A stretch of DNA of 64,000 nt, from the NCBI GenBank assembly GCA_964544155.1, contig CAZJAH010000001.1, positions 23,304-87,303 on the forward strand. Direction: 5' to 3'. Origin of the DNA: an uncultured Hyphomicrobiales bacterium. GTDB taxonomy: Bacteria; Bacteroidota; Ignavibacteria; Kapaibacteriales; UBA2268. Both the position numbers and the translations under genes were made by a program. Every line of letters begins with the position of its first letter. Positions within the stretch are counted from its first letter, which is position 1. The notes below the pieces were generated by a model, which saw only the letters and a list, made by a program, of their open reading frames with translations, did no database searches and was not told where the DNA came from. This document shows, piece by piece, positions 830-59,878 of the stretch.

Positions 830-3800
830 TCAAAACCCTGCGAAGGAGTCTTCCATTATCTTATTTTGCTCGGCCAGATGGATTTTCATAAGGCCTGTTG
901 CAGTAGCGGCACTTTCTTTCCTGCCTACATAGTGCAGCTTCAAGCTGTATTTCTGAGCAAGATCAATTAAATAATGATGTATATAATGCCATGATCCCAT
1001 ATTCTTTGGCTCTTCCTGCACCCACACAAGCTCTTTCGCGTTCGGGTATGAGGAAATCAGTTTTGAAAGGTATTCTGTATAAAGCGGATAAAGCTGTTCC
1101 ACAGAAATAATGGCAGTATCTTTATTATCGATTTTTTCCCTGTGCGCCCAAAGTTCATGGAATATTTTGCCCGAGCATAGATTAATTCTTTTAACATTTT
1201 CTTTGTCGGCCAAATCATCATCGCGCATGTGCTTAAATTCACCGCTTTCAAGCTCGCGAATATCGGATACGGCATTAGTATGCCTCAACATACTTTTGGG
1301 CGTCATAATTACAAGCGGAACGCGGTTTTCGAGTTTCATCTGCCTTCGTAGTATGTGGAAATACTGCGCCGGGCTGGTCAGGTTAGCAACTATCATGTTT
1401 TCATCTGCACACAGCTGTAAAAACCTCTCCGGCCTGGCGCTGGAATGTTCCGGGCCCTGGCCATCGTAGCTGTGGGGCAGCAGCAGTACAAGGTTAGTTG
1501 TTACCCCCCATTTTACCTCCCCGCAGGCAATAAACTGATCCGCTATTGACTGAGCGTTATTGAAGAAATCTCCGAACTGGGCTTCCCAGAATGTCAGACA
1601 GTTTTTCGCGAGAACACTGTAGCCGTATTCAAATCCCAAAACAGCCATTTCGGATAATGGGCTGTCATAGATTCGTATTTTTGACTGATTTTCGCTAATG
1701 TCATTTAAGGGGGTGTATTCTTCCTCAGTTTTAACATCAAAGAGTACCGCATGCCTTTGGCTGAATGTACCTCTGCGGCTGTCCTGGCCGCTAAAGCGAA
1801 TATCATGACCGTCCATCAGTATGCTTCCGAAAGCCAGATGCTCTGCCATAGCCCAGTCGATGGCGGGTTTATCACTCATCACCATATCGTGGCGGCGCTT
1901 AAGTAAAGCTTTAACTTTGGGGTTAATATTAAAATGCGCAGGTACATGGGTGATTTTTTCAGTAATGAACTTTATATCTTTTTCTGAAACCCTGGTATCG
2001 ATCTTTTTATAGGTCTGTCCTTCTTTTCTTCTGTTAGGAATATCTCTGGATTTTTCAGATTCTTTTCTGCTGGCGTATTTTTTATTAAGAAAATCTTCGG
2101 CTTCTTTTTTTACTTTTTTTCTTTCATCTTCTGTAATAATATTGTCTTTAACAAGCAAATTGCCGTATAATTCAGCCACAGGGGATTGTTTGTTGAGCTT
2201 TTTGTATAAAAGCGGCTGCGTGTAAGACGGTTCATCAGCTTCGTTGTGGCCGTATTTTCTCCAGCATAGCATATCGATAATAACGTCGCTTTTGAATTTC
2301 TGCCTGTACTCAAACGCAAATACAGCAGCCGTTCTGACTGCTTCGGGATCATTGCCGTTGACGTGAAGTATTGGAGTTTGTATCATCTTAGCTATATCAG
2401 TGGCGTAAACAGTCGATCGCGCGTAATCGGAAGTTGTAGTAAAACCAATCTGATTATTAACAATTATATGTATGGTGCCGCCCGTTTTATAGCCGGAAAG
2501 CTGGGATAAGTTTAGCGTTTCAGCAACAATTCCCTGACCGGCGAAAGCGGCGTCGCCGTGAACCAGGATTGGGATCGCGTCCGAGTGCAGTTTGTCTTTT
2601 ATCTCGTTGTCTATGGCTCGCGCCATTCCTTCAACAACCGGGTTGACCAGTTCCAAATGGCTTGGGTTAGGAGCAAGAATGACTGGTATTGAGTTTTCTT
2701 TTGGTGAAATATACTGGCCTTGATCCCCCAGATGATATTTAACATCTCCTGCTCCGTAGTAATTAACGGGGTCTATGTCGCCGTCAAATTCCTTGAATAT
2801 GGCACGGTGCGATTTGCCAATATTATTAACAAGGGCGTTGAGCCTGCCTCTGTGAGCCATGCCAAGCACAATGGAATGCAGATCGCTGTCAGCTGATTTT
2901 TCAAAAAGCTTATCTATCAATACTATAAGCGATTCACCGCCTTCGAGCGAAAACCTCTTATGGCCGAGGAATTTTGTGTGAAGAAAATTCTCGAATGATT
3001 CCGCATCAATCAGCTTTTTGTAAATATGTTTTTTCTCTGTTTCAGAATAATTGAAAGAGCTGCGGGTACCCTCCAGCCTTTTCTTAAGCCATTCTTTTCT
3101 ATCCGGATTTTGAATATGCATGAACTCAATGCTGAGAGTTCCGCAGTATGTTTCCCTGAGCAGTTCTATGATATCTCTTAAGGGAAGTTCATTTCTTTCC
3201 CATGTATCATCAGCGTGAAATTCCCTGTCGAGGTCCCAAATAGTAAAACCGTAATAGGCAGGATCAAGTTCGGGATAGTAATATGATTCCTGCCCCAGTG
3301 GATTAACTGAAGCAAGCAGGTGCCCTCTTACCCTGTATGCGTTTATCATCTGTACGGCATGAGCGCCTTTTTCGACTGTATCTCTTATATCGATGAAACC
3401 GTTGTTGCCTTTGCGCGTATTATCTATTGCCCAGCGTACGGGTTCAAAGGGGATCTTAAGGCTGGCGAATATTTGGTCATAGAACTGGTCGCCGCCAATC
3501 AGTAGCTTGTGAATATATGCCAGAAATTCAGCAGATTCTGCGCCCTGTATGATCCTGTGATCATATGTGTTTGTCATGGTTACGACTTTTGAAAGCGCGA
3601 AAGTAGTCATTATTTCCGGCCTTACGGCCTGAAATTCTGTCGGGTAATCGATCGATCCTGTAGCTATGATCATACCCTGCCCTTTCATAAGCCTGGGGCT
3701 GGAAGCTGTTGTGCCGATCATGCCGGGGTTAGTTAGTGTAACGGTTGTATCTTCCAGATCGCTAAGTGCTATCTTATTCGACCTTGTTTTATCAATAATC

Positions 3801-4456
3801 TTTTGAAATTCTTCAATAAATTCGGAAAAATTGTGCTGCCCGGCATTTTTAACGTTTGGAACAAGCAGAAGCCTTGTTCCGTCTTTTTTTGTGATATCAA
3901 CAGCCAGGCCGATATTGATATGCTTTCTTTTGATTCTGCCGGGCTTGTTATTCTTAACCGCGAAAGCGTCGTTCAGATACGGGAATTTCATCAGTGCCCT
4001 GACAATCGCCCAGGCAAGTATGTGAGTAAATGAAACTTTTGGGCGTTTCATTTTCAACAGATATTTATTAATTATGCGGCGGTTTTCATCTAAAGCTTTA
4101 ACAGGTATTGATCGCGATGAAGTAGCTGTCGGTACTTCAATGCTTTCTTCCATATTTTTTGCAATTTTTGACTGAACAGATGATAATTCGATAATCTCAT
4201 CACCCTCATTTCTGAATTGTTCGGCTTCTTCTTCAGGTGGTGTGAATTCCTGATATGGTTTGGGCGCTATTGGCAGATGGGCTTGTTCCGGCTTATTTTT
4301 TTTCTGTTCTCTGGGCGGTTTTCTCTCTTTATGCGGAAGTTGGAACTTCTCGTAATTCTCTTCAAAGTAGTGCCTCCATTCAGGGCTTACTGATTGCGGG
4401 TCGCGCAAGTATTGATGAAATAATTCATCTTCGAATGCTGCATTCGGATTAATCAT
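830..4456 (-). CDS. sucA: 2-oxoglutarate dehydrogenase E1 component with fused lipoyl-less E2 succinyltransferase catalytic domain (Kgd/OdhA-type, 1208 aa)
   Basis: N-terminus MINPNAAFEDELFHQYLRDPQSVSPEWRHYF is typical of SucA. An E/P-rich linker leads into an E2 acyltransferase catalytic core carrying the DHRIIQG(A) motif, then a full TPP-dependent E1o body. Total length matches actinobacterial Kgd/OdhA (~1220 aa). No lipoyl-lysine domain is visible. Confidence 0.85.
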   Translation of the reverse strand: MINPNAAFEDELFHQYLRDPQSVSPEWRHYFEENYEKFQLPHKERKPPREQKKNKPEQAHLPIAPKPYQEFTPPEEEAEQFRNEGDEIIELSSVQSKIAKNMEESIEVPTATSSRSIPVKALDENRRIINKYLLKMKRPKVSFTHILAWAIVRALMKFPYLNDAFAVKNNKPGRIKRKHINIGLAVDITKKDGTRLLLVPNVKNAGQHNFSEFIEEFQKIIDKTRSNKIALSDLEDTTVTLTNPGMIGTTASSPRLMKGQGMIIATGSIDYPTEFQAVRPEIMTTFALSKVVTMTNTYDHRIIQGAESAEFLAYIHKLLIGGDQFYDQIFASLKIPFEPVRWAIDNTRKGNNGFIDIRDTVEKGAHAVQMINAYRVRGHLLASVNPLGQESYYYPELDPAYYGFTIWDLDREFHADDTWERNELPLRDIIELLRETYCGTLSIEFMHIQNPDRKEWLKKRLEGTRSSFNYSETEKKHIYKKLIDAESFENFLHTKFLGHKRFSLEGGESLIVLIDKLFEKSADSDLHSIVLGMAHRGRLNALVNNIGKSHRAIFKEFDGDIDPVNYYGAGDVKYHLGDQGQYISPKENSIPVILAPNPSHLELVNPVVEGMARAIDNEIKDKLHSDAIPILVHGDAAFAGQGIVAETLNLSQLSGYKTGGTIHIIVNNQIGFTTTSDYARSTVYATDIAKMIQTPILHVNGNDPEAVRTAAVFAFEYRQKFKSDVIIDMLCWRKYGHNEADEPSYTQPLLYKKLNKQSPVAELYGNLLVKDNIITEDERKKVKKEAEDFLNKKYASRKESEKSRDIPNRRKEGQTYKKIDTRVSEKDIKFITEKITHVPAHFNINPKVKALLKRRHDMVMSDKPAIDWAMAEHLAFGSILMDGHDIRFSGQDSRRGTFSQRHAVLFDVKTEEEYTPLNDISENQSKIRIYDSPLSEMAVLGFEYGYSVLAKNCLTFWEAQFGDFFNNAQSIADQFIACGEVKWGVTTNLVLLLPHSYDGQGPEHSSARPERFLQLCADENMIVANLTSPAQYFHILRRQMKLENRVPLVIMTPKSMLRHTNAVSDIRELESGEFKHMRDDDLADKENVKRINLCSGKIFHELWAHREKIDNKDTAIISVEQLYPLYTEYLSKLISSYPNAKELVWVQEEPKNMGSWHYIHHYLIDLAQKYSLKLHYVGRKESAATATGLMKIHLAEQNKIMEDSFAGF

Positions 4457-5175: not shown

Positions 5176-7689
5176 TTATAGGTTGCCTTCCTCTTTCCAT
5201 TGATTGATCAGGGATATATATTTTTTTGCCAATGACTCTGCCATATCAAATTGATCGCTTTCACTGTACACAACAAATGAAGCCGTTTCCTTAGCGGGAA
5301 GCAGAAGCACTGAATCCCCCTGTTCGGTGAATATTTTTACACCTTCTACCAGTTCGCGTTTTAATTTATTTGAATGATCCATCGCGCGCCTCATTACAAG
5401 GCCCTTAAGCTCCCAGGGTACCTCTACGGTTTCTGAATGTTGGTATCGGCGGGGAAGAGTTTCATCCAGTTTAGAAATTTTATGGCCGCTTTTGGCGAGC
5501 ATCTCAAGTATCTGTCCGATAGTGAACATACCGTCAGAGGCGAAAAGGAAATCACTAAAAATATAACCGCCGTAAATTCCTCCGGCAAAAAGCACGCTTT
5601 CATCACGGGTGGATTCCATCATAGCCGAGTGTGAATTTTTTATCCTGACTATCTCTACATTGTAGTCTTTAGCTATTTCATCTATTTCACTGCCGGCAAC
5701 TATTGAAATGGCAATTTTATAAGGCTCTTTTTTTCTGTGAGTTTCAAGGAATAATTTAGTTAAAATAGTAAGAAGCCTCATTGGTGAATACCATACTCCC
5801 CTTTCATCAATAAGCGAGATCTTCTCGGCGCCCGGATCCATTCTGAATCCAAGCTCATAATTGAGCGAACGCATTATCCTGCCGGTTTCGCCGCTTTCCA
5901 GGGGCTGCATAGTCGGATCTGGATGGAATTTTGAAGCGTCTATATAATTATTCAGTGAAATAACCTCCGCGCCGAGCTTACCGAGAATGCTCGGGAATAT
6001 AATAGAAGATAAACCATACGAATAATCTACAAGCAGCTTGAATTTTCTTTCCTTAATATTATCGACTTCGAGTGATTCCATAAAGCGGTTAATGTAAATT
6101 TCGTTTGTTCTTTCCGGATATGTAATTGAGCCTAGTTCATCATATTTGACTCGTTTAATATCCTCTCCGAAGTAGTATCTCTCAATTTTTTTGGTTGTGG
6201 ATATTGAAATATCCCTGCCCTCTTTGTTGAATATAATTATATCAGAATAATCCGGATTTCTGTGGCTGCGCCTAACGTGGAATCCGCCGTCATAGCGTCC
6301 TGTTCGCAGTTCCTGCCTTGTCTGAGGTATTGAAACCGTTTGAAGGTCGTTTACGTTTACGCCTACTGATGAAAGTCCGGCTGTTATGGACCTTTTCATT
6401 ATCCTGGAAACCTTGTGGGGATCGCGGCTGGCAAGCAGTTTAGAGCGTTTCCCCATTGAAAGCCCTATTGCAGCGCCAAGCTTAGCGCCGAACTCTGGAT
6501 TAATATCTATATTTGATAATCCCGAGATACGGGCATCGGTGAATAGCTCGCGAAGCCATTTATCTTCCTGTACTATTGAGCGTGTTACACTGGCGCGCTC
6601 TTCAACATTCTTGTTCGGCCACAATTTTATATTCGGGGATAACCTTGCCTGCCTGCCTATATTACAATTATCGCCGATGAATACGTTTTCGGCGATAGTT
6701 ACCGAACTGCCGAGCTGTACGCCATAGCAGACAACGTCATCAGTCAGGTCGGCGAAATCGCCTATAACGGCATTATCCCATATTGTAACGCCGTTCAGCC
6801 TCGCGCCCCTCCCGATCTTTACGTTATTTCCGATCACGCAGTCTCTTAAATAAACATTATCCCCTATAACAGTGTCATCTCCAATAATCACGACATCCTC
6901 CATTTGCGCGGTCGGTGCTATATTAGCGGTTGAAGAGATAATATAATCACCGTTCTGTTTGCCGTTTACAATAAGAGACAGATTTCCTCTGAGTGCGTCA
7001 TACTGGCCGGTCTGATATTCAGTCAGGTTGCCCACATCGCGCCAGTACCCTTCGGCAACAAATCCGTATAGCGGCATTTTTCTATCAAGTATCATCGGGA
7101 AAAGATCCTTGCTGAAATCAAATTCTTCCCTAAAAGGGATCATATCCAATACTTCGGGTTCAAGTATATAAATTCCTGTATTGATTGTATCTGAAAAAAC
7201 CTGCCCCCATGAGGGTTTTTCAAGGAATCTTGTAATGCGGCCTTCTTCGTCGGTGATCACAATACCGTATGCCAGCGGGTTTGTTACTCTGGTAAGCAGG
7301 ATAGTGGCTTTAGAGCCTTTTTCCTCGTGAAATTTCAGCGCTTTACTGATATCAAAATCTGTGAGCACATCGCCGCTTATGATGATAAAGCGGTCATTAA
7401 GATATTCATGGGCATTCTTTACGCTGCCTGCTGTGCCGTAATCAGCCTGAGCGAGCACGTAATTCATGTTTATCCCGAATTTTGAGCCGTCCTCGAAGTG
7501 CCCCGTTATTGCTTCAGGCTGAAAATACAGTAATGATACTATATCCCTGATGTTATGATTTTTCAATAAATTGACAATATGCCCCATCATAGGTACGTTC
7601 GCTATCGGTACCATGGGTTTTGGAATGTTCATTGTAAGCGGCCTTAATCTTGTGCCAAATCCGCCCGCCATTATCACGGCCTTGTTCAT
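5176..7689 (-). CDS. Bifunctional sugar-1-phosphate nucleotidyltransferase (mannose-1-P guanylyltransferase-like) / phosphomannomutase-phosphoglucomutase fusion (837 aa)
   Basis: N-terminal MNKAVIMAGGFGTRLRPLT NTP-transferase motif. Central left-handed beta-helix hexapeptide repeats (IGDNVYLRDCVIGNNVKIG...). C-terminal alpha-D-phosphohexomutase domain with the active-site Ser region FHVRRSHRNP and GGIYGGYIFSDF. Confidence 0.75.
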   Translation of the reverse strand: MNKAVIMAGGFGTRLRPLTMNIPKPMVPIANVPMMGHIVNLLKNHNIRDIVSLLYFQPEAITGHFEDGSKFGINMNYVLAQADYGTAGSVKNAHEYLNDRFIIISGDVLTDFDISKALKFHEEKGSKATILLTRVTNPLAYGIVITDEEGRITRFLEKPSWGQVFSDTINTGIYILEPEVLDMIPFREEFDFSKDLFPMILDRKMPLYGFVAEGYWRDVGNLTEYQTGQYDALRGNLSLIVNGKQNGDYIISSTANIAPTAQMEDVVIIGDDTVIGDNVYLRDCVIGNNVKIGRGARLNGVTIWDNAVIGDFADLTDDVVCYGVQLGSSVTIAENVFIGDNCNIGRQARLSPNIKLWPNKNVEERASVTRSIVQEDKWLRELFTDARISGLSNIDINPEFGAKLGAAIGLSMGKRSKLLASRDPHKVSRIMKRSITAGLSSVGVNVNDLQTVSIPQTRQELRTGRYDGGFHVRRSHRNPDYSDIIIFNKEGRDISISTTKKIERYYFGEDIKRVKYDELGSITYPERTNEIYINRFMESLEVDNIKERKFKLLVDYSYGLSSIIFPSILGKLGAEVISLNNYIDASKFHPDPTMQPLESGETGRIMRSLNYELGFRMDPGAEKISLIDERGVWYSPMRLLTILTKLFLETHRKKEPYKIAISIVAGSEIDEIAKDYNVEIVRIKNSHSAMMESTRDESVLFAGGIYGGYIFSDFLFASDGMFTIGQILEMLAKSGHKISKLDETLPRRYQHSETVEVPWELKGLVMRRAMDHSNKLKRELVEGVKIFTEQGDSVLLLPAKETASFVVYSESDQFDMAESLAKKYISLINQWKEEGNL

Positions 7690-22400: not shown

Positions 22401-23621
22401 TTAATAAAATGTCACTTTAAGCATGGAAAAATCATCTTTGAGCTTCGATGATTTGTTTGCTTTTCTGACTTCAGAATAATAACCCTTTAATTCAGATCCA
22501 TCATTGCTGTGATTTTTTTCTAAATAATCCAGTACATCTTCGTGAGTCCAGCGCTTGTCATCTTCAATATCGAAAACGCCGTCAGAATAAAGGTAGATGG
22601 AAGAATTTAAAGGCAGCATAGTATGTTCGGACCTGAAATCATAATGTTTTACGCTTCCAATGACGATATTTTTGCTGAATATTCTCAGGTTAGTACCGTT
22701 TTCGCTGTAAATAAGCATTGGAGGATGCCCTGCTCCGGCGTATGTGAGCTTTCTGGTATTAACATTAAATACCATATACCATATAGTGAAATAATGATGA
22801 TTGTGATCAGTCATCTGGAAAGCGTCATTTAGAGCGTCGAGCACTTCTTCGGGCTTTCTGAAGTCGGTTTGCGGCAGAGTCTGAAACCTCAGCATATTAA
22901 ACGCCGAAACAGACTGCAGAGCCGATCCTATGCCATGTCCGGAAATATCCAGAAGATAAACCGCGATGTGGTCACTGTCGATATAATTATATCCAAGCGC
23001 GTCGCCTCCTATTTTGCTGGAAGCTATGAAAAGATTGCTGGCTTTCATTCTGGTATCTTCATAAGGCTCAGGTATTAATGAATTTATGTAATTCCTTGCA
23101 ATAGAAAGCTCAGAATTGAGCCTGTTGAGATACTCGGCTTTAAGCCGGTTTGATTCAATAAGCTTTTTATTGGTTTTTTTCAGGTCAGTTGCTGTTTTAA
23201 CAAGCTGGTCACGGTGCTGCTTTAATTCCAGATGGTTCTTTACCCTTACTATAAGTTCTTCTTTGTTGAATGGCTTGGTAAGGTAATCAATCCCACCGCA
23301 TCGGAAACCCTGTATAAGGTCTTCCTTTTCGCTTCTCGCAGTAAGGAATATCACGGGTATATCCTGTGTATCAGGATTTTCTTTAATTTTTTTGCAGACT
23401 TCAAAGCCGTCCATTCCCGGCATCATAATGTCCAGCATGATCAGATCAGGCTTTACCTGATCGAGTATTGACAAGGCTGATTTACCGTTCAGGGCCACGG
23501 ATACGTCGAATTCCTGCTTATTCAGAAGTATGCCGAGCACCTGAAGGTTTTCGGCTACATCATCCACAATTAATATGAGTGGCTTTTTCTTTTTGTTAAT
23601 GTCTTCTATCAGTGTTGTCAT
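22401..23621 (-). CDS. Response-regulator receiver domain fused to PP2C-type (SpoIIE/RsbU-like) Ser/Thr phosphatase
   Basis: N-terminal REC domain (LIVDDVAENL...DLIMLDIMMPGMDG...TKPF). Coiled-coil linker. C-terminal PPM/SpoIIE domain with metal-binding Asp motifs (GGDALGY...LLDISGHG...YSDGVFD). Confidence 0.8.
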   Translation of the reverse strand: MTTLIEDINKKKKPLILIVDDVAENLQVLGILLNKQEFDVSVALNGKSALSILDQVKPDLIMLDIMMPGMDGFEVCKKIKENPDTQDIPVIFLTARSEKEDLIQGFRCGGIDYLTKPFNKEELIVRVKNHLELKQHRDQLVKTATDLKKTNKKLIESNRLKAEYLNRLNSELSIARNYINSLIPEPYEDTRMKASNLFIASSKIGGDALGYNYIDSDHIAVYLLDISGHGIGSALQSVSAFNMLRFQTLPQTDFRKPEEVLDALNDAFQMTDHNHHYFTIWYMVFNVNTRKLTYAGAGHPPMLIYSENGTNLRIFSKNIVIGSVKHYDFRSEHTMLPLNSSIYLYSDGVFDIEDDKRWTHEDVLDYLEKNHSNDGSELKGYYSEVRKANKSSKLKDDFSMLKVTFY

Positions 23622-25690: not shown

Positions 25691-27802
25691 ATGGAAGACC
25701 AGGGAAAAAAAATATTCAGCAGGCTAAGCAGGTTCATTCCTGTAACAAACGTTGCCCTAATAGTAATGTTTCTTATAACCCTTGCTATAAGGACAGCAGG
25801 TGACATAGCCCTTTACTTTTCAGGAAACCTTGGCTCGCCGGGCGGCCTTATATGGCAGAGCCTCACCGGTTTTGTACTGATAGCTGTGATCTTCGGTTAC
25901 AGCCAGCTCGCCTATAGAAAGCAAAAATCGGCCGAATATAAGAATTATCTTTCAGGTTTTGTGAAAATCCTGGTTGCCATACTTGCTTTTACTCTGCTTT
26001 TGGAATTTATTCCTGACCCAATTAATAATGAAGGCATACCATCGGATTTTTTTATGCTTATAATTGCAGAAATTATTCCACTCACCGGAATAGTGATATG
26101 CTTTCTTATCGGTTCATATCTTTTTAAATGGCTTAACATACACAGACATAAAAAAACAAGGACTTACATAGAGATATCAGGGTTCATTCTTTTATACGCT
26201 TTTACTTATGAATATCTCAGCTCGTTTTTTACCTTTCTCGAACATGATATAATTCTGTTTATTCACGGGGTCATTTTGGTAACAGGCATAATCACCGTTT
26301 TTCTGAATGCCAGAAGAAATTCCTGGATAGCGGTACTGCCAAGGCCAAACAAGCTTAAACTAATGTCTCTCAGTGCGGTAAATGTTGTCATTTCAACCGT
26401 TTTAGCCGTAACGGTAGGCAGCCAGGGGTGGCTAAATGAAACCTACTATTTGCTGCTGCCCGGAATTGACGCGGTTGTATTCCTGACCTTCTCATATTTC
26501 TCGGCTTATTCACTTAGAATATTCCTTGCTTCGATGGCCTCGCTGCCAACATCAGAAATTGTAGAAAGAAGGACTTCCGAATTAAGTTCGCTTACTTACC
26601 TGAATAAGGTAGTTGCCGAAACAGTCGATCTGGAAGTGCTGCTCGATACCGTGACTGAGCTTGCCCTTAGATCCAGCGGCGCACATTCCGCCTGGTGCGA
26701 GATATACGAAAATGATTCAATCAAAATAAGGTCATCGCGAAATATTGATGATAACCTGCTCTACTCACTTCATCAGGATTACAGGCTCAAAAATTACTTT
26801 AAAATGAACGCTAATCCTTTACTTATTGATTCGATAATAGAGAACAGGGATATATTCTTCATCAAGCAGTTTATGCCTCAATCGAATACTCTTATAGCGG
26901 TACCTTTGTATGAAGGAGCTTTAAGGGTTGGAACTTTGGTTGTGATAAATCACGAAGAATACAGTTTTGAGCAGGATGACCTGAAAGTACTCAGCGCTTT
27001 CAGCGATAATGTATCCATCGCTCTTGAGAATGCCAGACTGCTGAAGGATTCCATAGAGAAAGAAAAGTATCGCAGTGAGCTTAGCCTTGCAAGAAGAATA
27101 CAAAAGAACCTCCTCCCCGACAAACTGCCCCAGTTTGATAACTATTCAGTCGATGCCATTTCCATACCGGCGGATGAGATAGGAGGTGATTATTATGATA
27201 TAGTTACTCTGGCTGATGGCAGGCAATGCCTTCTGATAGCGGATGTTTCCGGCAAAGGCATCTCTGCCGCGATTATCATGGCGCAGCTCAAAGGAGTGGT
27301 AATGTCAATAGCTTCATCATCGAAAGGGGCGGCTGAGCTGCTCAGGAAGATAAACAGAACTCTGTACGGCACAATGGATAAGCAAATGTATATAACGATG
27401 AGCGCCCTTGTTTTCGAAAATGAACCCGGCAGGCTGACATTTGCGCGCGCAGGGCATATGCCGATCATTTACAACAGAAATTCAGAAGCCGTAAGCAATA
27501 CACCAAAAGGCATAGGCATAGGGCTCACAGGGCCTGAACTTTTTGATAAGAACCTCGAAGAAATCGAGATTCCTCTGGATGAGGGTTCATCCTGCTTATT
27601 ATTTACTGACGGAATCAATGAATTAAGAAATGTACATAATGAAGAGTTTGGTTACAGCCCGATTAAAAGTTTTTTAAAAGGAAACAAATATTATGACGCA
27701 GGCGTATTAAACCATAAGATTATTTCTGAACTGCGTGAATTCGCCGATTCCAATACACAGCATGATGATATAACCATTGTTTCGGTGGTCAGAAAAAAAT
27801 AA
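25691..27802 (+). CDS. Membrane sensor with about 10 TM helices fused to GAF and PP2C-type (SpoIIE/RsbU-like) phosphatase
   Basis: First ~290 aa are polytopic membrane. A GAF-like region follows (LIAVPLYEGALRVGTLVVINHEE). C-terminal PPM domain (IGGDYYDIV...LLIADVSGKGISAA...FTDGINE). It heads an operon with the STAS and anti-sigma-kinase genes. Confidence 0.8.
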   Translation: MEDQGKKIFSRLSRFIPVTNVALIVMFLITLAIRTAGDIALYFSGNLGSPGGLIWQSLTGFVLIAVIFGYSQLAYRKQKSAEYKNYLSGFVKILVAILAFTLLLEFIPDPINNEGIPSDFFMLIIAEIIPLTGIVICFLIGSYLFKWLNIHRHKKTRTYIEISGFILLYAFTYEYLSSFFTFLEHDIILFIHGVILVTGIITVFLNARRNSWIAVLPRPNKLKLMSLSAVNVVISTVLAVTVGSQGWLNETYYLLLPGIDAVVFLTFSYFSAYSLRIFLASMASLPTSEIVERRTSELSSLTYLNKVVAETVDLEVLLDTVTELALRSSGAHSAWCEIYENDSIKIRSSRNIDDNLLYSLHQDYRLKNYFKMNANPLLIDSIIENRDIFFIKQFMPQSNTLIAVPLYEGALRVGTLVVINHEEYSFEQDDLKVLSAFSDNVSIALENARLLKDSIEKEKYRSELSLARRIQKNLLPDKLPQFDNYSVDAISIPADEIGGDYYDIVTLADGRQCLLIADVSGKGISAAIIMAQLKGVVMSIASSSKGAAELLRKINRTLYGTMDKQMYITMSALVFENEPGRLTFARAGHMPIIYNRNSEAVSNTPKGIGIGLTGPELFDKNLEEIEIPLDEGSSCLLFTDGINELRNVHNEEFGYSPIKSFLKGNKYYDAGVLNHKIISELREFADSNTQHDDITIVSVVRKK

Positions 27803-52886: not shown

Positions 52887-54182
52887 TTAAGGTGTAGCCA
52901 ATACATTTCTGTTGAATTTAGTTGTATCTACCTGTATGGGAGCGCCATCATAGAGCTGCTTGCTCACTGCCCGGAAACTCCCGCTAATTACGGTCTGGCC
53001 TTCATCGAGTCCATTTTTGATTTCAATAAACCCTCTGTCGCTAATACCTGTTTCCACGTTGACCAGCCTGGCCTTATTGCCGTCTTTAATAAAAACAACT
53101 GGTTGGGGTTTATCTTTCATCTTTTTGACATCATCATCAATTTTTTTTGTACCTCTTCCGGCGTCCATATTCAGGTCAGGATTCCTGTCTATAGTAGTAT
53201 CACGCACGGTGACTGCCATAAGTGGGACTGCTACCACATTCTGCCTGGTTTCGGTTTGAATTTCCACATTACAGCTCATACCGGGCCTGAGCTTAGGTTC
53301 CTCGCTAAGCAGCCTTATTTTAACTTCAAAATTTGTTACCTGATCCTGCGATCCCAATTGGTCGGTTTTGGCGGAGTGGCCGATTTCAAATACTCTTCCT
53401 TTGTATATGGCTTCACCGAGAGCGTCAATTTCAACAAGTGTAGTATCACCCAGGGTTACCATGACTATATCGTTTTCATCTACGTCCACTACCGCGTTCA
53501 TCACCGAAAGATCAGACACACGCATTATTTCCGTGCCCTGCATCATTTCCGTGCCCACCACTTTTTCGCCTTTCTCTACGGCAAGCAAAGTCACTATTCC
53601 GTCAATAGGGGCATGAATAGTGGTTCTTTCGGCACTACGCTTAACCTGCCTGAAAGAAGCCTTAGCCTGTTCATATCTGGAAAGAGCGGCCTGATAAGCA
53701 GCCTGAGCGGCCTGATAAGCAGCCTGAGCTGAATCAAATTCCTGCTGAGAGATAAACTCCTTTTCATATAGACTTGTCGTTCTTTCCAACTCTTTTTTAG
53801 TACGTTCCATCTCTGCTTTACGTATATTGATTTCCATTTCGGCGGCATCAGCGGCTGATTTCATCTGCTCAAGCTGAGTTTCAACAATATCCGGCTTAAT
53901 CCTGACCAGAAGTTCGCCTGCTTTAACGGTATCGCCTTCATTCACACCAAGGTAAATGATCTCGCCGGAAGTTTCAGAGCTGATTTTAACTTCCGTTTCG
54001 GGCTGAATCTTGCCTATAGCAGAAACTGTCTGCGTGATTGTTCTGAGTTGGGCTTCCTCTATTTTCACGCTTATTTCTGCAGGTCCCTTTTTACCAATAA
54101 ATATGGCTATGGCGGCTATGGCCACTGCTGCCAGAATGGTAATTATTATCCATGTTTTTTTTGTTGATCTTCTTTTTGCCAT
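52887..54182 (-). CDS. Efflux transporter periplasmic adaptor subunit (MacA/HlyD membrane-fusion protein)
   Basis: N-terminal TM anchor ([25 protein letters not shown]), coiled-coil hairpin, beta-barrel and MP domains. I chose the start at M26 of the track ORF to avoid overlap with the RDD gene; the longer ORF would extend to 54257. Confidence 0.75.
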
Positions 54183-54204
54183 TTTATCCTCAGTTAATAA
54201 TTTC

Positions 54205-54810
54205 TTATACCGGTTTAACGGGTTCTTCTTCAGGCTGATATTTGACCTCACCGGCAAAATAAACTGCGGTACCGGCTATCATATCGTGGAAGGCCTGCCG
54301 CCTTGCTCCGAGTACGAAAAAGAAACCAAAAAGGATTATAATAAATACCAATATGCTTAATCCCTCAAATATCATTTGCCCGGTTAATAATGCAAGTAAA
54401 TTAAAATATAGATGTAAGTTTTTAATTGAAAATCGGGTAAACAGTTTGGCATAACTTGCCCAGGTACGGTTTTCCGAAGCTATTCTGATACCAAGTATGA
54501 GCTTTCCGGGTGTGGCCGCGAGCAATACCTCCATAAAATAATACAAAAAAGAAATCAGCAACGACATGGGGGTACTTACCTCACTAAACTGCCTGATCAG
54601 TTCCGGATCTATGATAACTTTTATTCCATGTTCCTGCACAAGGTCCATAGTGCCGGTGAATAGCATGGCAATACTTGATACAATCGTCACAATCAGTAAG
54701 TCAAGCAGTGCTGCTCCGAACCTTCTGCCGAATCCAACCCTGTAATCGAATTCATCATAATACTGAAATTGATCTTCAGGGCCGAAGGGAGTATTTTGAT
54801 CATTAGCCAT
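54205..54810 (-). CDS. RDD family membrane protein
   Basis: RDD signature (R..FGAALLDLLIV ... RRQAFHDMIAGT) with 3-4 TM helices. It is embedded between tolC and macA in the same operon. Confidence 0.65.
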   Translation of the reverse strand: MANDQNTPFGPEDQFQYYDEFDYRVGFGRRFGAALLDLLIVTIVSSIAMLFTGTMDLVQEHGIKVIIDPELIRQFSEVSTPMSLLISFLYYFMEVLLAATPGKLILGIRIASENRTWASYAKLFTRFSIKNLHLYFNLLALLTGQMIFEGLSILVFIIILFGFFFVLGARRQAFHDMIAGTAVYFAGEVKYQPEEEPVKPV

Positions 54811-54842: not shown

Positions 54843-56165
54843 TCATTTTATTAGACCGATCCTGAACTGAATCTCTTTTTTGGCCTGTAAATAATTATAA
54901 ACGGCAGTAACTCTGTTTATCCTTGCTGTTAACTGTTGTGTCTGGGCCTGAATAAACTCAGTAATTGAAGCCGCCCCCAGCTCAAATCTTTCTCTGGAGC
55001 TTTCAAAATTTCTCTCTGCCGCCCATATTGATCTTTGGGCAACTTCAAGCTGCTTTTCGGCAGCGTCGAGATTTAGTATTGCGGTCTGAATTTCGGCTAT
55101 TATGTTTTGTTCGGTTTCATACAGGTCAAGTGAACTTTGCGACTTGCTGTTTTCTGCGTTTGCTACCTGCTCGGCAACATTAAAATTCTGGAAAATCGGA
55201 ACATTCAGGCTGAGGCCAAAACTGGAATTATTCCTTCTCAGGAATCCTGTCTGGCCGTCTTCCCAATTCCATCCGCCGTTCACAAAGGCTGAAAGCGAGG
55301 GGAAATAAGATCCTCGAGCTGCCGTAACGCTTGCTTCAGCAATTTCAAGTGACCTTTTGGCCGCTATATAATCCGGCCTTTTTTCAAAGGCTATCTCAAT
55401 AGCGTTCCGGGTAGTTCCGATAATTTCTCTGAACTGTGCTATTTCGGCGGAATCGACTGTGCTCGGTATTGAAGATTCTAAAAATTCAGCATTAATGTCC
55501 GGCCTGATGCCCATTGTTTTCATCAAAGCGGTTTTAGAAACACTGAAGTCATTTTGAGCCTGTATCAGGTCAAACTCGCGATTTCCAAGTTCAGCTTCCT
55601 GTGAATATACAGCCGATACCGGCACTACTCCGGCATCGAATTGAGCTCTGATCCTCTCGAGGTCCGATCTGGTCTGTTCCAGATTTTCTCTTCTAATTTT
55701 TACCAGCTGGGCATTCTTTATAATATTAGTGTATTCAACATATACCCGGTAATTTATCATCATGTGATTGAATCTGTTAGTTAACTGCCAGAAATCCAGG
55801 GTTTTATCACTCATTTCATAACGGGCTTCTCTGGTGAAGCCGTCAAAGATCAAAAGCTGTGCCTGAAGGTTTAGATTATAATTGTTTGGCGGCGGATCAT
55901 ACGGCAGGCTTATACCATTAGATATAATGCTGCCTTCAAGTATGCGCTGATATCCGGCGCTAGCTCTCATAGTAGGGAGATAGTCTCCGAAAGCGCTTCT
56001 CTGCTCTACCTTCGACCGGCCTATTTCAGATTCCGATGAAAGAATACGGAGATTGTTATCCACCGCTATTCTTAAGCATTCCCGGAGGGAATAGGTATTG
56101 TTCTGCTGAGCCGTCACAGTAGCGGACGCCATCATTCCAATTATCACAAATAGTATTATTCTCAT
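54843..56165 (-). CDS. TolC-family outer-membrane efflux channel
   Basis: Signal peptide. Two tandem OEP repeats with the characteristic coiled-coil/beta-barrel pattern. Length 440 aa. Confidence 0.8.
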   Translation of the reverse strand: MRIILFVIIGMMASATVTAQQNNTYSLRECLRIAVDNNLRILSSESEIGRSKVEQRSAFGDYLPTMRASAGYQRILEGSIISNGISLPYDPPPNNYNLNLQAQLLIFDGFTREARYEMSDKTLDFWQLTNRFNHMMINYRVYVEYTNIIKNAQLVKIRRENLEQTRSDLERIRAQFDAGVVPVSAVYSQEAELGNREFDLIQAQNDFSVSKTALMKTMGIRPDINAEFLESSIPSTVDSAEIAQFREIIGTTRNAIEIAFEKRPDYIAAKRSLEIAEASVTAARGSYFPSLSAFVNGGWNWEDGQTGFLRRNNSSFGLSLNVPIFQNFNVAEQVANAENSKSQSSLDLYETEQNIIAEIQTAILNLDAAEKQLEVAQRSIWAAERNFESSRERFELGAASITEFIQAQTQQLTARINRVTAVYNYLQAKKEIQFRIGLIK

Positions 56166-56262: not shown

Positions 56263-57747
56263 TCAGTCAGAGGGATAAGATTTTATCAGAGTCGCGCGCC
56301 CCTGTCTGTCAATTGCTTTCATTTTGAATCTGAATGGTTTATCCGTATCCTTTGGCACAGCCTGAAAAACCTGCATCCAAACGAGGCTTTCTCTGTCTTC
56401 ACGTCCATCGCCTGGCTTTTCAATAAATCTGGCATTACCATCGACTAATTCGATCTTTGTTATATAATTTGCTTTGTTCCCGTATAGTCCGAATGCTCTT
56501 GTACGAATATACGCCGAGCTGTTCCCGACAGGCTGTATGTCGATAACCTCGGGCTGAGGGTAATTATTAACCTGTATAGTATATTTTTGGCCGATCAGAT
56601 TATTATCAGCGTAAAGTTCGAGATAAAGCACTTTACCCGTATCATTTATTGAAGGAGTGAAATTAAAAGATCCGCCGGTTGAATTTTGAGCGCGTACGTC
56701 TCCGGATTGCTTTTCAACTAATTGAGCTTTTATTCCGCGGTTTGCAAGCTTTGGCAGATTTGGTCTAATTTCATAAGTTTTACCCGGATACATAATTCTT
56801 GCAAATTCAGGGGATTTAAGCGGTTGCGGGGTAACCCTGAATTCAACACTTTTTTCCATTCCGTCGGCTTTTCTTATAAGAGTAAGAGTAACTCTTGATT
56901 CACCGAACCCTGGTGATTCGCCCCTAAGGACTATCTGATTTGTGGAAAAATTCTCAATGGAAGCTGTACCGCCGTTATTTTCAGGATTATTCTTAATACT
57001 TACTACAGGCTTTCTGAGAAGGTCTTTTTCAGGATTTAATCCAAATATCAATACCGGATTCGTCCATTTTTGATATGCTATGGTTCTAACAGGATTCTCT
57101 ACAGGATCGAGTAACACTTCTCCGGGTTCGTCGCGCATAATGAACATCCTCGGCACATCCGGTTCAGTTTGTTCGTTTGTATCCCTGATTGCCAGGTATT
57201 GATCATCCTGTCCAGGAGTTTCCTGCTGATCAAGGAAAATAATGTTAAGGCTGAACTTTGTAGATGCTTCAACAGGTATGGTCCTTCCATCTTTACTGGT
57301 GTATTCACCATCTGCATTTACATGTACTATAAATGATTTATTCTTCAGCTCATAAACCGGTGGATACCAAAAGAAACTGACAGTATTGAGTTTAGGCTTT
57401 TCTTCTATGCGGAAATGATTGGTATTTGTCCGGCTTTCTGAAGCTAAAACCAGTTTTTGCTTAAGAGCCTGGTCTTCTATTATGAACTCATAATTAAGAT
57501 TAGATACTCCGCCCCTGTGAAATATATTATTTATGGAATCTACCGTAAGAATCTTAGGCCCGAGGCTGTCAATTTCAAGAAAGCAGTTAAGTGTTGTTTT
57601 CTCCGGATAAATAAGAAATTCAGGCTTATCTTCATCAGCGGAAATATCAGTCTTGTCCTTTTCGCCGGGTAAAATGAAAATGAGCGCCGCTAGATAAAGC
57701 ACGAAATAAATTTCGACAGTGCGTCTTCTTTTAGTCTTTTGTTTCAT
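56263..57747 (-). CDS. Single-pass membrane protein, divergent GldM/PorM-like (mostly beta periplasmic domain)
   Basis: N-terminus MKQKTKRRRTVEIYFVLYLAALIFIL has Arg at position 9 and a Tyr-containing TM, like GldM (…SPRQKMINLMYLVFIAML). The periplasmic portion is about 460 aa and beta-rich, with no helical D1-like region. It overlaps the upstream GldL-like gene by 17 bp. Confidence 0.4.
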   Translation of the reverse strand: MKQKTKRRRTVEIYFVLYLAALIFILPGEKDKTDISADEDKPEFLIYPEKTTLNCFLEIDSLGPKILTVDSINNIFHRGGVSNLNYEFIIEDQALKQKLVLASESRTNTNHFRIEEKPKLNTVSFFWYPPVYELKNKSFIVHVNADGEYTSKDGRTIPVEASTKFSLNIIFLDQQETPGQDDQYLAIRDTNEQTEPDVPRMFIMRDEPGEVLLDPVENPVRTIAYQKWTNPVLIFGLNPEKDLLRKPVVSIKNNPENNGGTASIENFSTNQIVLRGESPGFGESRVTLTLIRKADGMEKSVEFRVTPQPLKSPEFARIMYPGKTYEIRPNLPKLANRGIKAQLVEKQSGDVRAQNSTGGSFNFTPSINDTGKVLYLELYADNNLIGQKYTIQVNNYPQPEVIDIQPVGNSSAYIRTRAFGLYGNKANYITKIELVDGNARFIEKPGDGREDRESLVWMQVFQAVPKDTDKPFRFKMKAIDRQGRATLIKSYPSD

Positions 57748-58528
57748 TACCGGATAATCTTGCAGTAATTAATTTTTCTATTTCTTTTCTTACAGAAGCG
57801 TTGATATTATCATTTCTTAAAGATAGTGCGGATCTGTTCAGTTCATCTACAGTGCTTTTAAAAGCCAAAAGCGCGTTATTTGTATCTTTAATATTATCAA
57901 TCATTTCCGGATTTGGCTTAAGAGCATCGGACTGATTTTGATTCATTATTTTCAGTTCTTTCATGATTTGCTGCTGTCCGGAAATCATGAGCGAAATATT
58001 TTCATTGAATTTTTCAAGCTGAACAACGGCCAGGGCAAAATCCTTACCAATTTCTCCTATTTCCGTAAGCAGTTCTTCTGAAATATCTTCTTCATCTTCT
58101 TCATCGAAATAAATTTCCTCATCGGGTGAAAATAACATAACCACAAACATAAAGAGCAGCATAAGGGCTTCGAATATAATGCCTACTATCACGATATTAT
58201 CGCTAATTTCGTCGCTAAAGCGCCTTATACCTATAAGTACAAGTAAAATTGCAGCGCCAAAATACACAAATGAATTGATGGCCGAAAAATAATGCCTGTT
58301 GACGACCTCTTCCATCCAGAGCGATGAACCGCGGATAAATCCCAGAGGATGATTTACCCTTATGTTTTCCTTAATATATTTATTTAATTCTCTTTCGAAT
58401 GTACAGATTCGCCAGAGTAATATCAAGACAGAGATCCCTGAGCGCTGCTTTTCGTACCTAAGCTCACTGAAAATTTTCTGTAGTAATTTTCTTCCCTTTC
58501 CGGAAGAAAGCGTTACAATGCTTTCCAT
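57731..58528 (-). CDS. Two-TM membrane protein, GldL/PorL-like
   Basis: TM1 FVYFGAAILLVLIGIRRF resembles GldL YGMGAAVVIVGALFKI. TM2 IVIVGIIFEALMLLF...LFSPDEE resembles GldL LLTEAAIFALSAFEPVEDE. A cytoplasmic acidic/coiled-coil tail follows. The longest ORF starts at 58528. An internal ATG at 58315 (M72) removes an 80-aa extension and gives a 194-aa protein in which the TM Glu is residue 49, as in GldL. Confidence 0.5.
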   Translation of the reverse strand: MESIVTLSSGKGRKLLQKIFSELRYEKQRSGISVLILLWRICTFERELNKYIKENIRVNHPLGFIRGSSLWMEEVVNRHYFSAINSFVYFGAAILLVLIGIRRFSDEISDNIVIVGIIFEALMLLFMFVVMLFSPDEEIYFDEEDEEDISEELLTEIGEIGKDFALAVVQLEKFNENISLMISGQQQIMKELKIMNQNQSDALKPNPEMIDNIKDTNNALLAFKSTVDELNRSALSLRNDNINASVRKEIEKLITARLSGNETKD

Positions 58529-58605: not shown

Positions 58606-59685
58606 CTAAGTTCTTGTCTTAAATAAATTAACTAATCCAGCTATTAAAAACAAAATATTAGCCATCCACCCCGAAATAACCGGGTGGATATTCGAGGCAT
58701 ATCCTATGGTCTGGCCGATTTCGGCAAATATCATGTACGAGAAGGATATTACCATCGCAGCGCCTATTTGTACGGCTATGCCTCCTTTCTTTTTTACAGA
58801 AGCAAAAGGTACGCCAAAAAGTATAACAATAATATTAGCAACCGGGAACGCGAGCTGCCCGTGATAATCGATCAACTGCCGCCTCACATCTTTGCCGCCT
58901 TGCTTAAGCAATTCAATATAATCGCGGTATTCGTCAAATGTCATTTCGTCCGGTGATTTTTGTAATTTTATGAGCTGGTTATGTGAAAGATCAATATTTG
59001 CCACTGCAGAATCAAAAGTTATTGCTTTTACTTCTGTTCCCGTGTAATCGCGCTTTACCCCTTGATACATGATCCATCGCGAATCTGTAGAATCCCATTT
59101 GATCCTTTCGGATTCGGTACGTGATACCAGCCTGGGTTTCAATTCCGAACTGTATTCCTCTACTACCGCGTTGATACCTGTAAGTATCGACCAGTCATAA
59201 TGCTGCATGATGACATTTCTTCCGGGCGCGTCTCTGAAGTATAGATTATATATCGGGCCTCCGGTTTCGCTTTTGTTTAAATATTCCCTTTCAATTAGAA
59301 GTTTCTCACTATTGGCTTTGGGAACAATCCACCCGTTAAAATAAAGCTGAAGGCCGCTGAAAAAAATACTGAATATTAGAAGAGGCAGCATGAATATATA
59401 CAGGCTCATTCCGCCTGATTTCATAGCGGTTATTTCATTATTTGTTGATAACCTGCCGACAGTAAATAATGTGGCAAGCAGTACTGCAACAGGTGCTAAC
59501 AGTTTGAGGATTTCAGGTATATAGTATAAGTAATACCTGGTTATTATACCCGCTCCGGCGTTTTGATCCAGAAATTCATCCATGGTCTCCATAAGATTGA
59601 CTACGATGAAGATCACGCACAAAGCAATAAGCGCGAATAATAGCGTTAAAATAAACTGCCGGAATACATATCGGGCTATCAACAT
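58606..59685 (-). CDS. LptF/LptG family permease (YjgP/YjgQ)
   Basis: Six TM helices with a large periplasmic beta-jellyroll insert between TM3 and TM4. The N-terminal motif MLIARYVFRQFI is typical of LptF/G. Length 359 aa. Confidence 0.75.
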   Translation of the reverse strand: MLIARYVFRQFILTLLFALIALCVIFIVVNLMETMDEFLDQNAGAGIITRYYLYYIPEILKLLAPVAVLLATLFTVGRLSTNNEITAMKSGGMSLYIFMLPLLIFSIFFSGLQLYFNGWIVPKANSEKLLIEREYLNKSETGGPIYNLYFRDAPGRNVIMQHYDWSILTGINAVVEEYSSELKPRLVSRTESERIKWDSTDSRWIMYQGVKRDYTGTEVKAITFDSAVANIDLSHNQLIKLQKSPDEMTFDEYRDYIELLKQGGKDVRRQLIDYHGQLAFPVANIIVILFGVPFASVKKKGGIAVQIGAAMVISFSYMIFAEIGQTIGYASNIHPVISGWMANILFLIAGLVNLFKTRT

Positions 59686-59820: not shown

Positions 59821-59850
59821 ACAAAAAAAAGGAGGCAAATTAATGCCTCC
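59821..59850 (-). terminator. Rho-independent terminator downstream of csbD
   Basis: On the - strand, GGAGGCA-ttaatt-TGCCTCC is followed by TTTTTTTTGT. Confidence 0.6.
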
Positions 59851-59878
59851 TTTGTGCAATCTAAACAGATTAATAGGT

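Follow-up and report, generated by a model that had tools for sequence, protein, structure and literature searches.

Two overlapping genes on the minus strand of the 64,000-nucleotide stretch of DNA analysed here (from contig CAZJAH010000001.1; the whole stretch is referred to below as the window) encode what is probably a distant GldLM-like energy transducer, and not a member of the GldLM family itself. Gene A (57731-58528) is an open reading frame of 265 amino acids that specifies an inner-membrane protein with two transmembrane (TM) helices, GldL-like by architecture and a probable remote homologue of GldL. Gene B (56263-57747) is an open reading frame of 494 amino acids that specifies a bitopic protein. 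As modelled, the topologies of the two products are GldL-like and GldM-like, respectively. We propose, with an even chance of being right, that A and B form an inner-membrane complex on the plan of the GldL/GldM (PorL/PorM) motor, serving as an energy transducer with a periplasmic output; its formation, stoichiometry, coupling to ions and movement are what we infer for such a complex. An earlier, sequence-only reading of this DNA had described the genes as an ion-driven motor pair of unknown output. Of that description, the GldLM-like architecture and the echo of GldL stand, but the kinship with GldM does not.

A and B are real, translationally coupled genes. The start of B overlaps the end of A, as had been read from the sequence, by 17 nucleotides (nt), and a word-indexed search returned 301 homologues of A, at 50-57% identity over the full length, and 50 homologues of B, at 30-43% identity. 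Proteins identical to A and B are found as ACLFR2_02290 and ACLFR2_02295 on a 332-kb contig of a Candidatus Kapaibacterium metagenome-assembled genome (MAG). A pattern scan of species-representative genomes placed A in at least 174 species-level genomes, essentially all of which are labelled Kapabacteria, Ignavibacteria or “Bacteroidetes/Chlorobi”. Our neighbourhood counts rest on 80 fetched loci, every one of which holds A (80/80); the gene immediately after A is B in 76 of them, the remaining contigs being truncated, and the overlap between the two genes is usually 1-56 nt. Many MAG records titled “uncultured Hyphomicrobiales bacterium” (L005, L006, L016, L019 and many others) also hold the A/B pair, which is specific to Kapabacteria and Ignavibacteria, at about 50% identity. 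These titles look like bulk mislabelling.

The anatomy of A begins with a conserved domain that is not present in GldL. Residues 1-75 (58304-58528, minus strand) form a cytoplasmic alpha/beta domain, modelled by AlphaFold2 as beta-alpha-alpha-beta. In the alignment of 40 homologues from which conservation in the A family was read, these residues are strongly conserved in all 40 and include 13 invariant positions, among them G12, R13, L23, Q28, W39, L62, G63, G67, W71 and E74; N77 and R78 are also invariant. The sequence-only reading had considered translation from an internal ATG at 58315 (Met72), which would make the buried glutamate of TM2 residue 49, as in GldL. Because residues 1-75 are conserved, A must start at 58528 and the glutamate is residue 120; the internal start was thus rejected, and of the proposed numbering only the arithmetic from Met72 holds. 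A long helix contains TM1 (about residues 85-103, NSFVYFGAAILLVLIGIRR; 58220-58276, minus strand), which aligns to residues 10-27 of GldL with GAA on GAA. Y89, G91, A92, G100, R102 and P135 are invariant in the 40 homologues; across 43 hairpins of the wider superfamily described below, invariance holds for Y89, A92 and G100, with conservation of 90% or more at G91 and R102. TM2 (residues 110-132; 58133-58201, minus strand) carries the buried Glu120 at its middle (codon GAA, checked at 58169-58171), and this residue never varies, being present in 40/40 sequences of the family and 43/43 of the superfamily. The cytoplasmic tail (residues 133-265; 57734-58132, minus strand) consists of an acidic linker and then a long helical hairpin with helices at 146-203 and 207-260, and holds 29 acidic versus 14 basic residues. 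The AlphaFold2 model as a whole, with a predicted local distance difference test score (pLDDT) of 85, shows the N-terminal domain, two TM helices, the acidic linker and the hairpin at 146-260, in agreement with the two TM helices and acidic helical tail first described for the upstream protein.

In profile comparisons, the similarity of A to GldL exceeds what would be expected by chance, a result that is borderline but reproducible. When A was compared with five solved GldL/PorL sequences, hhalign gave 86% probability (P = 5e-6) over 139 co-linear columns; with eight GldL sequences it gave 67% (P = 5e-5) over 145 columns. These alignments place G91-A92-A93 of A on G16-A17-A18 of GldL, and Glu120 fell on Glu49 in every hhalign run. 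Scores were 39-45, versus 18-22 for reversed profiles, for which P was 0.03-0.12. As a null, GldL columns were shuffled 120 times within the TM1, loop, TM2 and tail segments, and none of the 120 shuffles matched the real score (mean 16.3 +/- 3.5 and maximum 31.2, versus 39.1). Both parts of the protein contribute: aligned separately, the TM hairpin and the tail give P = 7e-4 apiece (reversed tail, 0.07). Three screens of the PDB point weakly in the same direction. A hidden Markov model (HMM) of the A tail found 7sax_C (GldL/PorL) at E = 0.015, a match to GldL in the tail only and amid coiled-coil noise; a TM-only profile of A gave just two matches in 177,635 sequences, GldL (E = 0.34) and ND4L (E = 0.19), neither of them significant; and with Foldseek, GldL/PorL accounted for 3 of 47 weak matches, 7sax_D superposing at 2.1 Å over 47 columns with 23% identity. 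The echo of GldL that had been seen in TM1 and TM2 is therefore above chance when set against shuffled and reversed controls. On balance we favour the view that A is a remote homologue of GldL, outside the family as it is currently defined.

The second protein combines a conserved TM helix with a periplasmic arm. In the AlphaFold2 model of B (pLDDT 87), one TM helix at the N-terminus precedes a periplasmic part that is entirely beta and contains neither helices nor a helical domain; a single-pass protein whose all-beta periplasmic part lacks a helical D1 is what the sequence-only reading had anticipated. Within the TM segment (residues 9-27, RTVEIYFVLYLAALIFILP; 57667-57723, minus strand), Y14, F15, L17, Y18, L19, A20 and P27 are invariant, and the motif of the family is E-I-Y-F-[VI]-L-Y-L-A-A. 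E12 and I13 are at least 90% conserved in the B-family alignment, Glu12 being near-invariant. Periplasmic domain 1 (residues 45-172; 57232-57615, minus strand) is all-beta with pLDDT above 85 and is followed by a disordered linker of about 30 residues (175-206). The rest of the protein (residues 207-494; 56266-57129, minus strand) consists of domains 2-4, three immunoglobulin (Ig)-like domains. The TM helix with its invariant Tyr14 and Tyr18 can be set beside Tyr17, which is invariant in GldM, and the highly conserved GldM Arg9, a comparison in which some 20 residues are too few for statistics.

Several results weigh against a relationship to GldL and GldM. A from the window matches neither of the curated GldL models, PF22827 (GldL_N) and TIGR03513, at E <=1, and GldL models are absent from the top Pfam and NCBIfam families at E <=1-10 for 40 members of the A family; the canonical GldL of reference loci (L089-L091) does match PF22827. 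The hhalign probability is below the usual 95% level, and wider profiles of A lower it, to 49% for a broad profile, 34% for a TM-only profile and 8% for a profile of distant members only. Since the TM-only profile matches ND4L as well as GldL, the hairpin could be convergent. In addition, Tyr89 is one residue out of register with Tyr13 of GldL (Y-F-G-A-A versus Y-G-M-G-A-A). For B, the GldM models PF12081, PF21601, PF21602 and PF12080 are not matched at E <=1 among 50 family members, hhalign comparisons with GldM (TM to D3, and D2 to D4) give P = 0.4-0.6, equal to reversed controls, and fold comparison reveals no specific similarity to GldM, including its Ig-like D2-D4. The first periplasmic domain of B is all-beta and without the helical D1 of GldM, and the basic residues that precede the TM motif are a variable Arg/Lys cluster, shifted or absent in distant partners. 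Finally, neither gldK nor gldN is among the conserved neighbours of A and B in the 80 loci.

Membership of A in the GldL family is not supported, no Pfam or NCBIfam model having been matched among the 40 family members. In the profile check against GldL, hhalign gave 67-86%, short of the 95% level, the three PDB screens gave weak matches and the curated models gave none. Membership of B in the GldM family is not supported either: all four curated domain models were unmatched and there was no likeness specific to GldM in sequence or fold. The B-family HMM run on pieces of GldM gave E-values of 0.4 or worse, at the level of noise, and the B profile found nothing relevant among PDB sequences. The GldM likeness claimed for the sequence of B was not upheld, nor was a fixed “Arg9” as in GldM, the constant elements being instead Tyr14, Tyr18 and the near-invariant Glu12. 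What does hold is that the periplasmic partner is non-canonical, with a beta domain in place of D1. There is no evidence of a tie between B and GldM beyond general architecture. Curated Pfam, NCBIfam and PADLOC scans of both families and of the window proteins gave no GldL, GldM, MotA, LptC or defence family, and at E <=1 neither A nor B matches the anti-phage motor-like systems in PADLOC, such as Zorya.

The pair belongs to a wider superfamily that is unannotated and escaped the sequence-only reading. An exhaustive HMMER search with the A profile gave 161 representatives at E <=1e-3. Distant A-like proteins share the hairpin signature Y-x-G-A-A-x-L-I ... G-x-R ... [LI]-E-[AF]-x-x-L ... F-[FY]-T-P-E, in which Tyr, Ala, Gly and Glu positions are invariant; no canonical GldL is found among them. 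Where the context was fetched, the gene after the A-like gene starts with a B-type TM motif, and B-type partners occur in four other branches. The motif shared by these partners is YF-x-x-YL, seen as MKQKTSFYFVLYL (L084 and L095), FRVELYFVLYL (L086), VEVYFIIYLA (L092) and LVYFILYLV (L094). Behind it, the L086 partner has the full set of B-like domains (E = 5e-66), the L092 partner has B-like domains 2-4 (E = 3e-9), the L094 partner is a stub of 201 amino acids and the L095 partner carries Sel1 repeats. Since partners differ by branch while the B-type TM motif stays, the sequences show a fixed two-subunit membrane core with interchangeable periplasmic parts, as in stator families.

The operons of this superfamily vary as well. 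In a GC-rich lineage (L086, 1271-4528, and L087; GCA_033581915.1 and GCA_025060235.1) the order is LptF/G, A-like, B-like, with overlapping stop and start codons. One run (L092, 1040-7731; also L093) consists of an A-like protein of 249 amino acids, a B-like protein of 476, two unannotated signal-peptide proteins of 486 and 412, and a PorX of 519 amino acids. Both the A-like and the B-like subunit of this operon are homologous to the window pair, and its PorX is a true orthologue (E = 7e-142 to solved PorX structures). Another run (L094, 8001-16675) holds an A-like protein of 224 amino acids, the 201-residue B-like protein and five unannotated signal-peptide proteins of 354-507 amino acids, up to the start of an Ig-repeat giant of 4,836 amino acids. 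Long A-like forms also occur (P0394, P0395, P0413 and P0436; 400-557 amino acids), with additional TM helices at the N-terminus and some 150 amino acids inserted on the cytoplasmic side; at the one such locus examined (L085, 8001-9203), the long form is solitary and no B-like gene accompanies it.

How might such a pair work? A would supply a TM hairpin with the membrane-embedded Glu120, the Tyr89 and Gly/Ala face of TM1, and its cytoplasmic N-terminal and hairpin domains, and B would supply a single TM helix with Tyr14, Tyr18 and the near-invariant Glu12 just after the basic cluster. Protonation and deprotonation of Glu120 at the interface of the A and B helices would turn the proton-motive force (PMF) into movement of B. 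With its four Ig-like domains, domain 1 included, and its flexible linker, B could reach across the periplasm and would pass the movement to a periplasmic or outer-membrane partner. The closest known system is GldL/GldM (PorL/PorM; PDB 6YS8, 7SAT-7SAZ), a motor powered by protons that serves type IX secretion and gliding. It likewise has a two-TM subunit followed by a bitopic subunit in translationally coupled genes; GldL, like A, has two TM helices and then a helical cytoplasmic tail, an invariant TM2 glutamate and a GAA, Gly and basic-residue pattern in TM1. Glu49 of GldL is essential for motor function (10.1101/2020.05.11.089193). Similarly, GldM and B each have one TM helix with conserved Tyr and, in the periplasm, an arm of several domains of which the last are Ig-like, and one operon related to A/B adjoins PorX. 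A differs from GldL in its extra conserved 75-residue N-terminal domain, in four more TM2 residues and in the shifted Tyr, B differs from GldM in its beta domain and in having a near-invariant Glu12 and no fixed Arg, and the locus differs in that gldK and gldN are not beside the pair and an LptF/G gene usually is.

The 5:2 stators MotAB, ExbBD and TolQR offer a second comparison. They too are overlapping two-gene inner-membrane pairs with an embedded carboxylate and a bitopic periplasmic partner, and they too combine a fixed membrane core with a periplasmic output that varies. However, A has only two TM helices and MotA_ExbB (PF01618) was unmatched in the Pfam scan; as in GldL, it is the multi-copy-type subunit and not the bitopic one that bears the key carboxylate; and B has no OmpA-like, TonB-like or TolR-like domain. 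The ND4L/NuoK hairpin of complex I resembles A in that its two membrane helices are joined by a “G-x-R-G” turn and bury a conserved Glu, and it gave the weak PDB match already mentioned. It lacks both cytoplasmic domains and a gene for a bitopic partner, it lies in a different operon, and its match is non-significant; the resemblance is best read as a warning of convergence.

One candidate function for the pair is type IX secretion. We regard it as a somewhat unlikely output of the proposed transducer in this lineage; beyond a share for an Lpt or other outer-membrane process, the rest of the probability falls to some other output. [quoted passage not shown] The remote similarity of A to GldL fits such an orthologue, and related genomes of the host lineage encode cargo with T9SS-type C-terminal domains (PF18962, Por_Secre_tail). 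According to reviews (PMC11285876, PMC5837995), T9SS “may” exist in Ignavibacteriota, and among the papers available none dealt with gld or T9SS motor genes of Kapabacteria or Ignavibacteria or reported canonical gldL or gldM in this lineage. The homologous operon with two further signal-peptide proteins beside PorX may represent an L-M-(K/N-like) core, diverged throughout, together with its regulator, PorX being known to bind the cytoplasmic domain of PorL/GldL (PMC10951265). This link to PorX is suggestive, but it comes from a single locus, which tells against reading the pair as a T9SS motor. B does not have any of the four GldM domains. Moreover, canonical reference loci (L089-L091) keep K-L-M-N together, whereas no gldK- or gldN-like gene lies beside the pair in 80 loci. 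The window itself contains neither gldK (PF03781 lipoprotein) nor gldN (PF19841), and in 1.36 Mb of related loci neither GldK nor GldN found a match by tblastn. The absence of both genes next to the pair had been noted from the sequence, and it extends to the relatives.

A second alternative, which we consider improbable, is that A and B make a static or signalling membrane complex, for example a trans-envelope tether or a coiled-coil sensor, and that the likeness to GldL is convergent. Database matches besides GldL are all to generic coiled-coil or TM families, some sources call the homologues “methyl-accepting chemotaxis protein”, and B is a generic chain of Ig domains. ND4L equals GldL on the TM hairpin, and the distant-only profile shows no link to GldL. 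On the other hand, the TM helices of both subunits contain invariant polar and aromatic residues throughout a deep superfamily, and the hairpin and tail match GldL co-linearly, well above the shuffled nulls. The periplasmic part is also swapped between branches while the membrane core is fixed, and a fixed membrane core with a swapped periplasmic part is the pattern of stator units.

The genes around the pair raise the possibility of a role in the outer membrane. An LptF/LptG-family permease gene lies upstream of A (58606-59685, minus strand; PF03739 at 9e-79, TIGR04408 LptG at 213 bits); we treat it as context and as no more than a putative member of the module. It is the commonest neighbour, upstream of A on the same strand in 50 of the 80 loci and separated from it by no more than 20 nt in 28 of the 48 loci measured, and this conservation is a second point that the sequence-only reading had missed. 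A strong intrinsic-terminator-like hairpin with a 10-bp stem and a T-run (59828-59853, minus strand) is found just upstream of the lptF/G-like gene and probably marks the start of an lpt-A-B transcription unit; the terminator scan of the window found none within lpt-A-B. Because the operon with the LptF/G permease recurs, an output related to the envelope or lipopolysaccharide (LPS) is a candidate for the proposed transducer, and we consider an Lpt or other outer-membrane process a quite unlikely one. The same setting could mean that the pair is an accessory of the LptB2FG LPS exporter or of outer-membrane biogenesis, with B as an LptC-like partner in position and the resemblance to GldL incidental; the frequent close spacing, the Lpt, A-like, B-like order of overlapping genes in the distant GC-rich lineage and the lack of a terminator between the genes in the window are in keeping with it. 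LptC is itself bitopic and rich in beta structure in its periplasmic part, and its gene lies beside an LptF/G permease. B, however, is about 2.5 times longer, is made of Ig-like domains, always accompanies the two-TM protein A and gives no LptC or OstA match in Pfam, NCBIfam or fold comparison; 30 of the 80 loci have no Lpt neighbour (L002 and L003 are flanked by Sua5 and GyrB), and other branches of the superfamily have no Lpt gene nearby. To our knowledge, no known Lpt component has an invariant buried Glu together with a large cytoplasmic tail, and we think an Lpt accessory very doubtful.

On its other side, the pair is followed in the window by a tolC-macAB block, and both flanks described from the sequence, this block and the lptFG-family permease, are confirmed by Pfam and NCBIfam matches. 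The neighbourhood comparison in relatives likewise set the pair apart from gldK and gldN while leaving the Lpt gene beside it in most loci. A block of TolC, RDD and MacAB genes follows the pair in only about 30 of the 80 loci, other genomes having unrelated flanks, and TolC-MacAB was rejected as part of the module on this ground. The efflux operon (TolC-MacA-MacB-FtsX-FtsX) contains an RDD-family membrane protein (54205-54810, minus strand) between TolC (54843-56165) and MacA (52887-54257), and this protein keeps the same position in about 29 of the 80 related loci.

Few families of ion-driven motors in the cell envelope are known. GldLM is regarded as specific to T9SS and gliding in Bacteroidota, and the paper on its structure reports no detectable similarity to other motor classes. 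If the GldLM-like reading of A and B is correct, this motor class would extend beyond the canonical locus and would work with a different periplasmic subunit. It would also provide a candidate for how Ignavibacteria and Kapabacteria with T9SS-type cargo energise secretion, and coupling of the PMF to a process linked to LptFG would become a testable idea. The invariant residues of A (Glu120 and Tyr89) and the conserved residues of B (Glu12, Tyr14 and Tyr18) offer themselves as targets for mutagenesis. A bolder and rather unlikely extension is that A and B found a widespread and so far unannotated class of ion-driven transducers related to GldLM, comprising at least 161 representative clusters. 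Its fixed core would join an A-type hairpin and its buried Glu to a B-type YF-x-x-YL helix, and its periplasmic outputs would be swappable. The outputs of such a class would include Ig-domain arms, Sel1 repeats and short stubs before secreted or giant adhesin-like proteins, and in this lineage the core would serve either as the T9SS motor that is missing or as a proton-powered LPS or outer-membrane helper co-transcribed with LptG.

Elsewhere in the window, three further features deserve mention. A protein of 1,208 amino acids (830-4456, minus strand) has a 2-oxoacid dehydrogenase acyltransferase (E2) domain fused ahead of a 2-oxoglutarate dehydrogenase E1; OdhA/Kgd-like E2-E1 fusions of this kind are best known from Actinobacteria. 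A protein of 837 amino acids (5176-7689, minus strand) combines nucleotidyl-transferase and hexapeptide domains with phosphoglucomutase/phosphomannomutase domains I-III. Finally, two SpoIIE-type PP2C phosphatases are encoded near each other (22401-23621, minus strand, and 25691-27802, plus strand), one with a response-regulator receiver and the other with a GAF domain.

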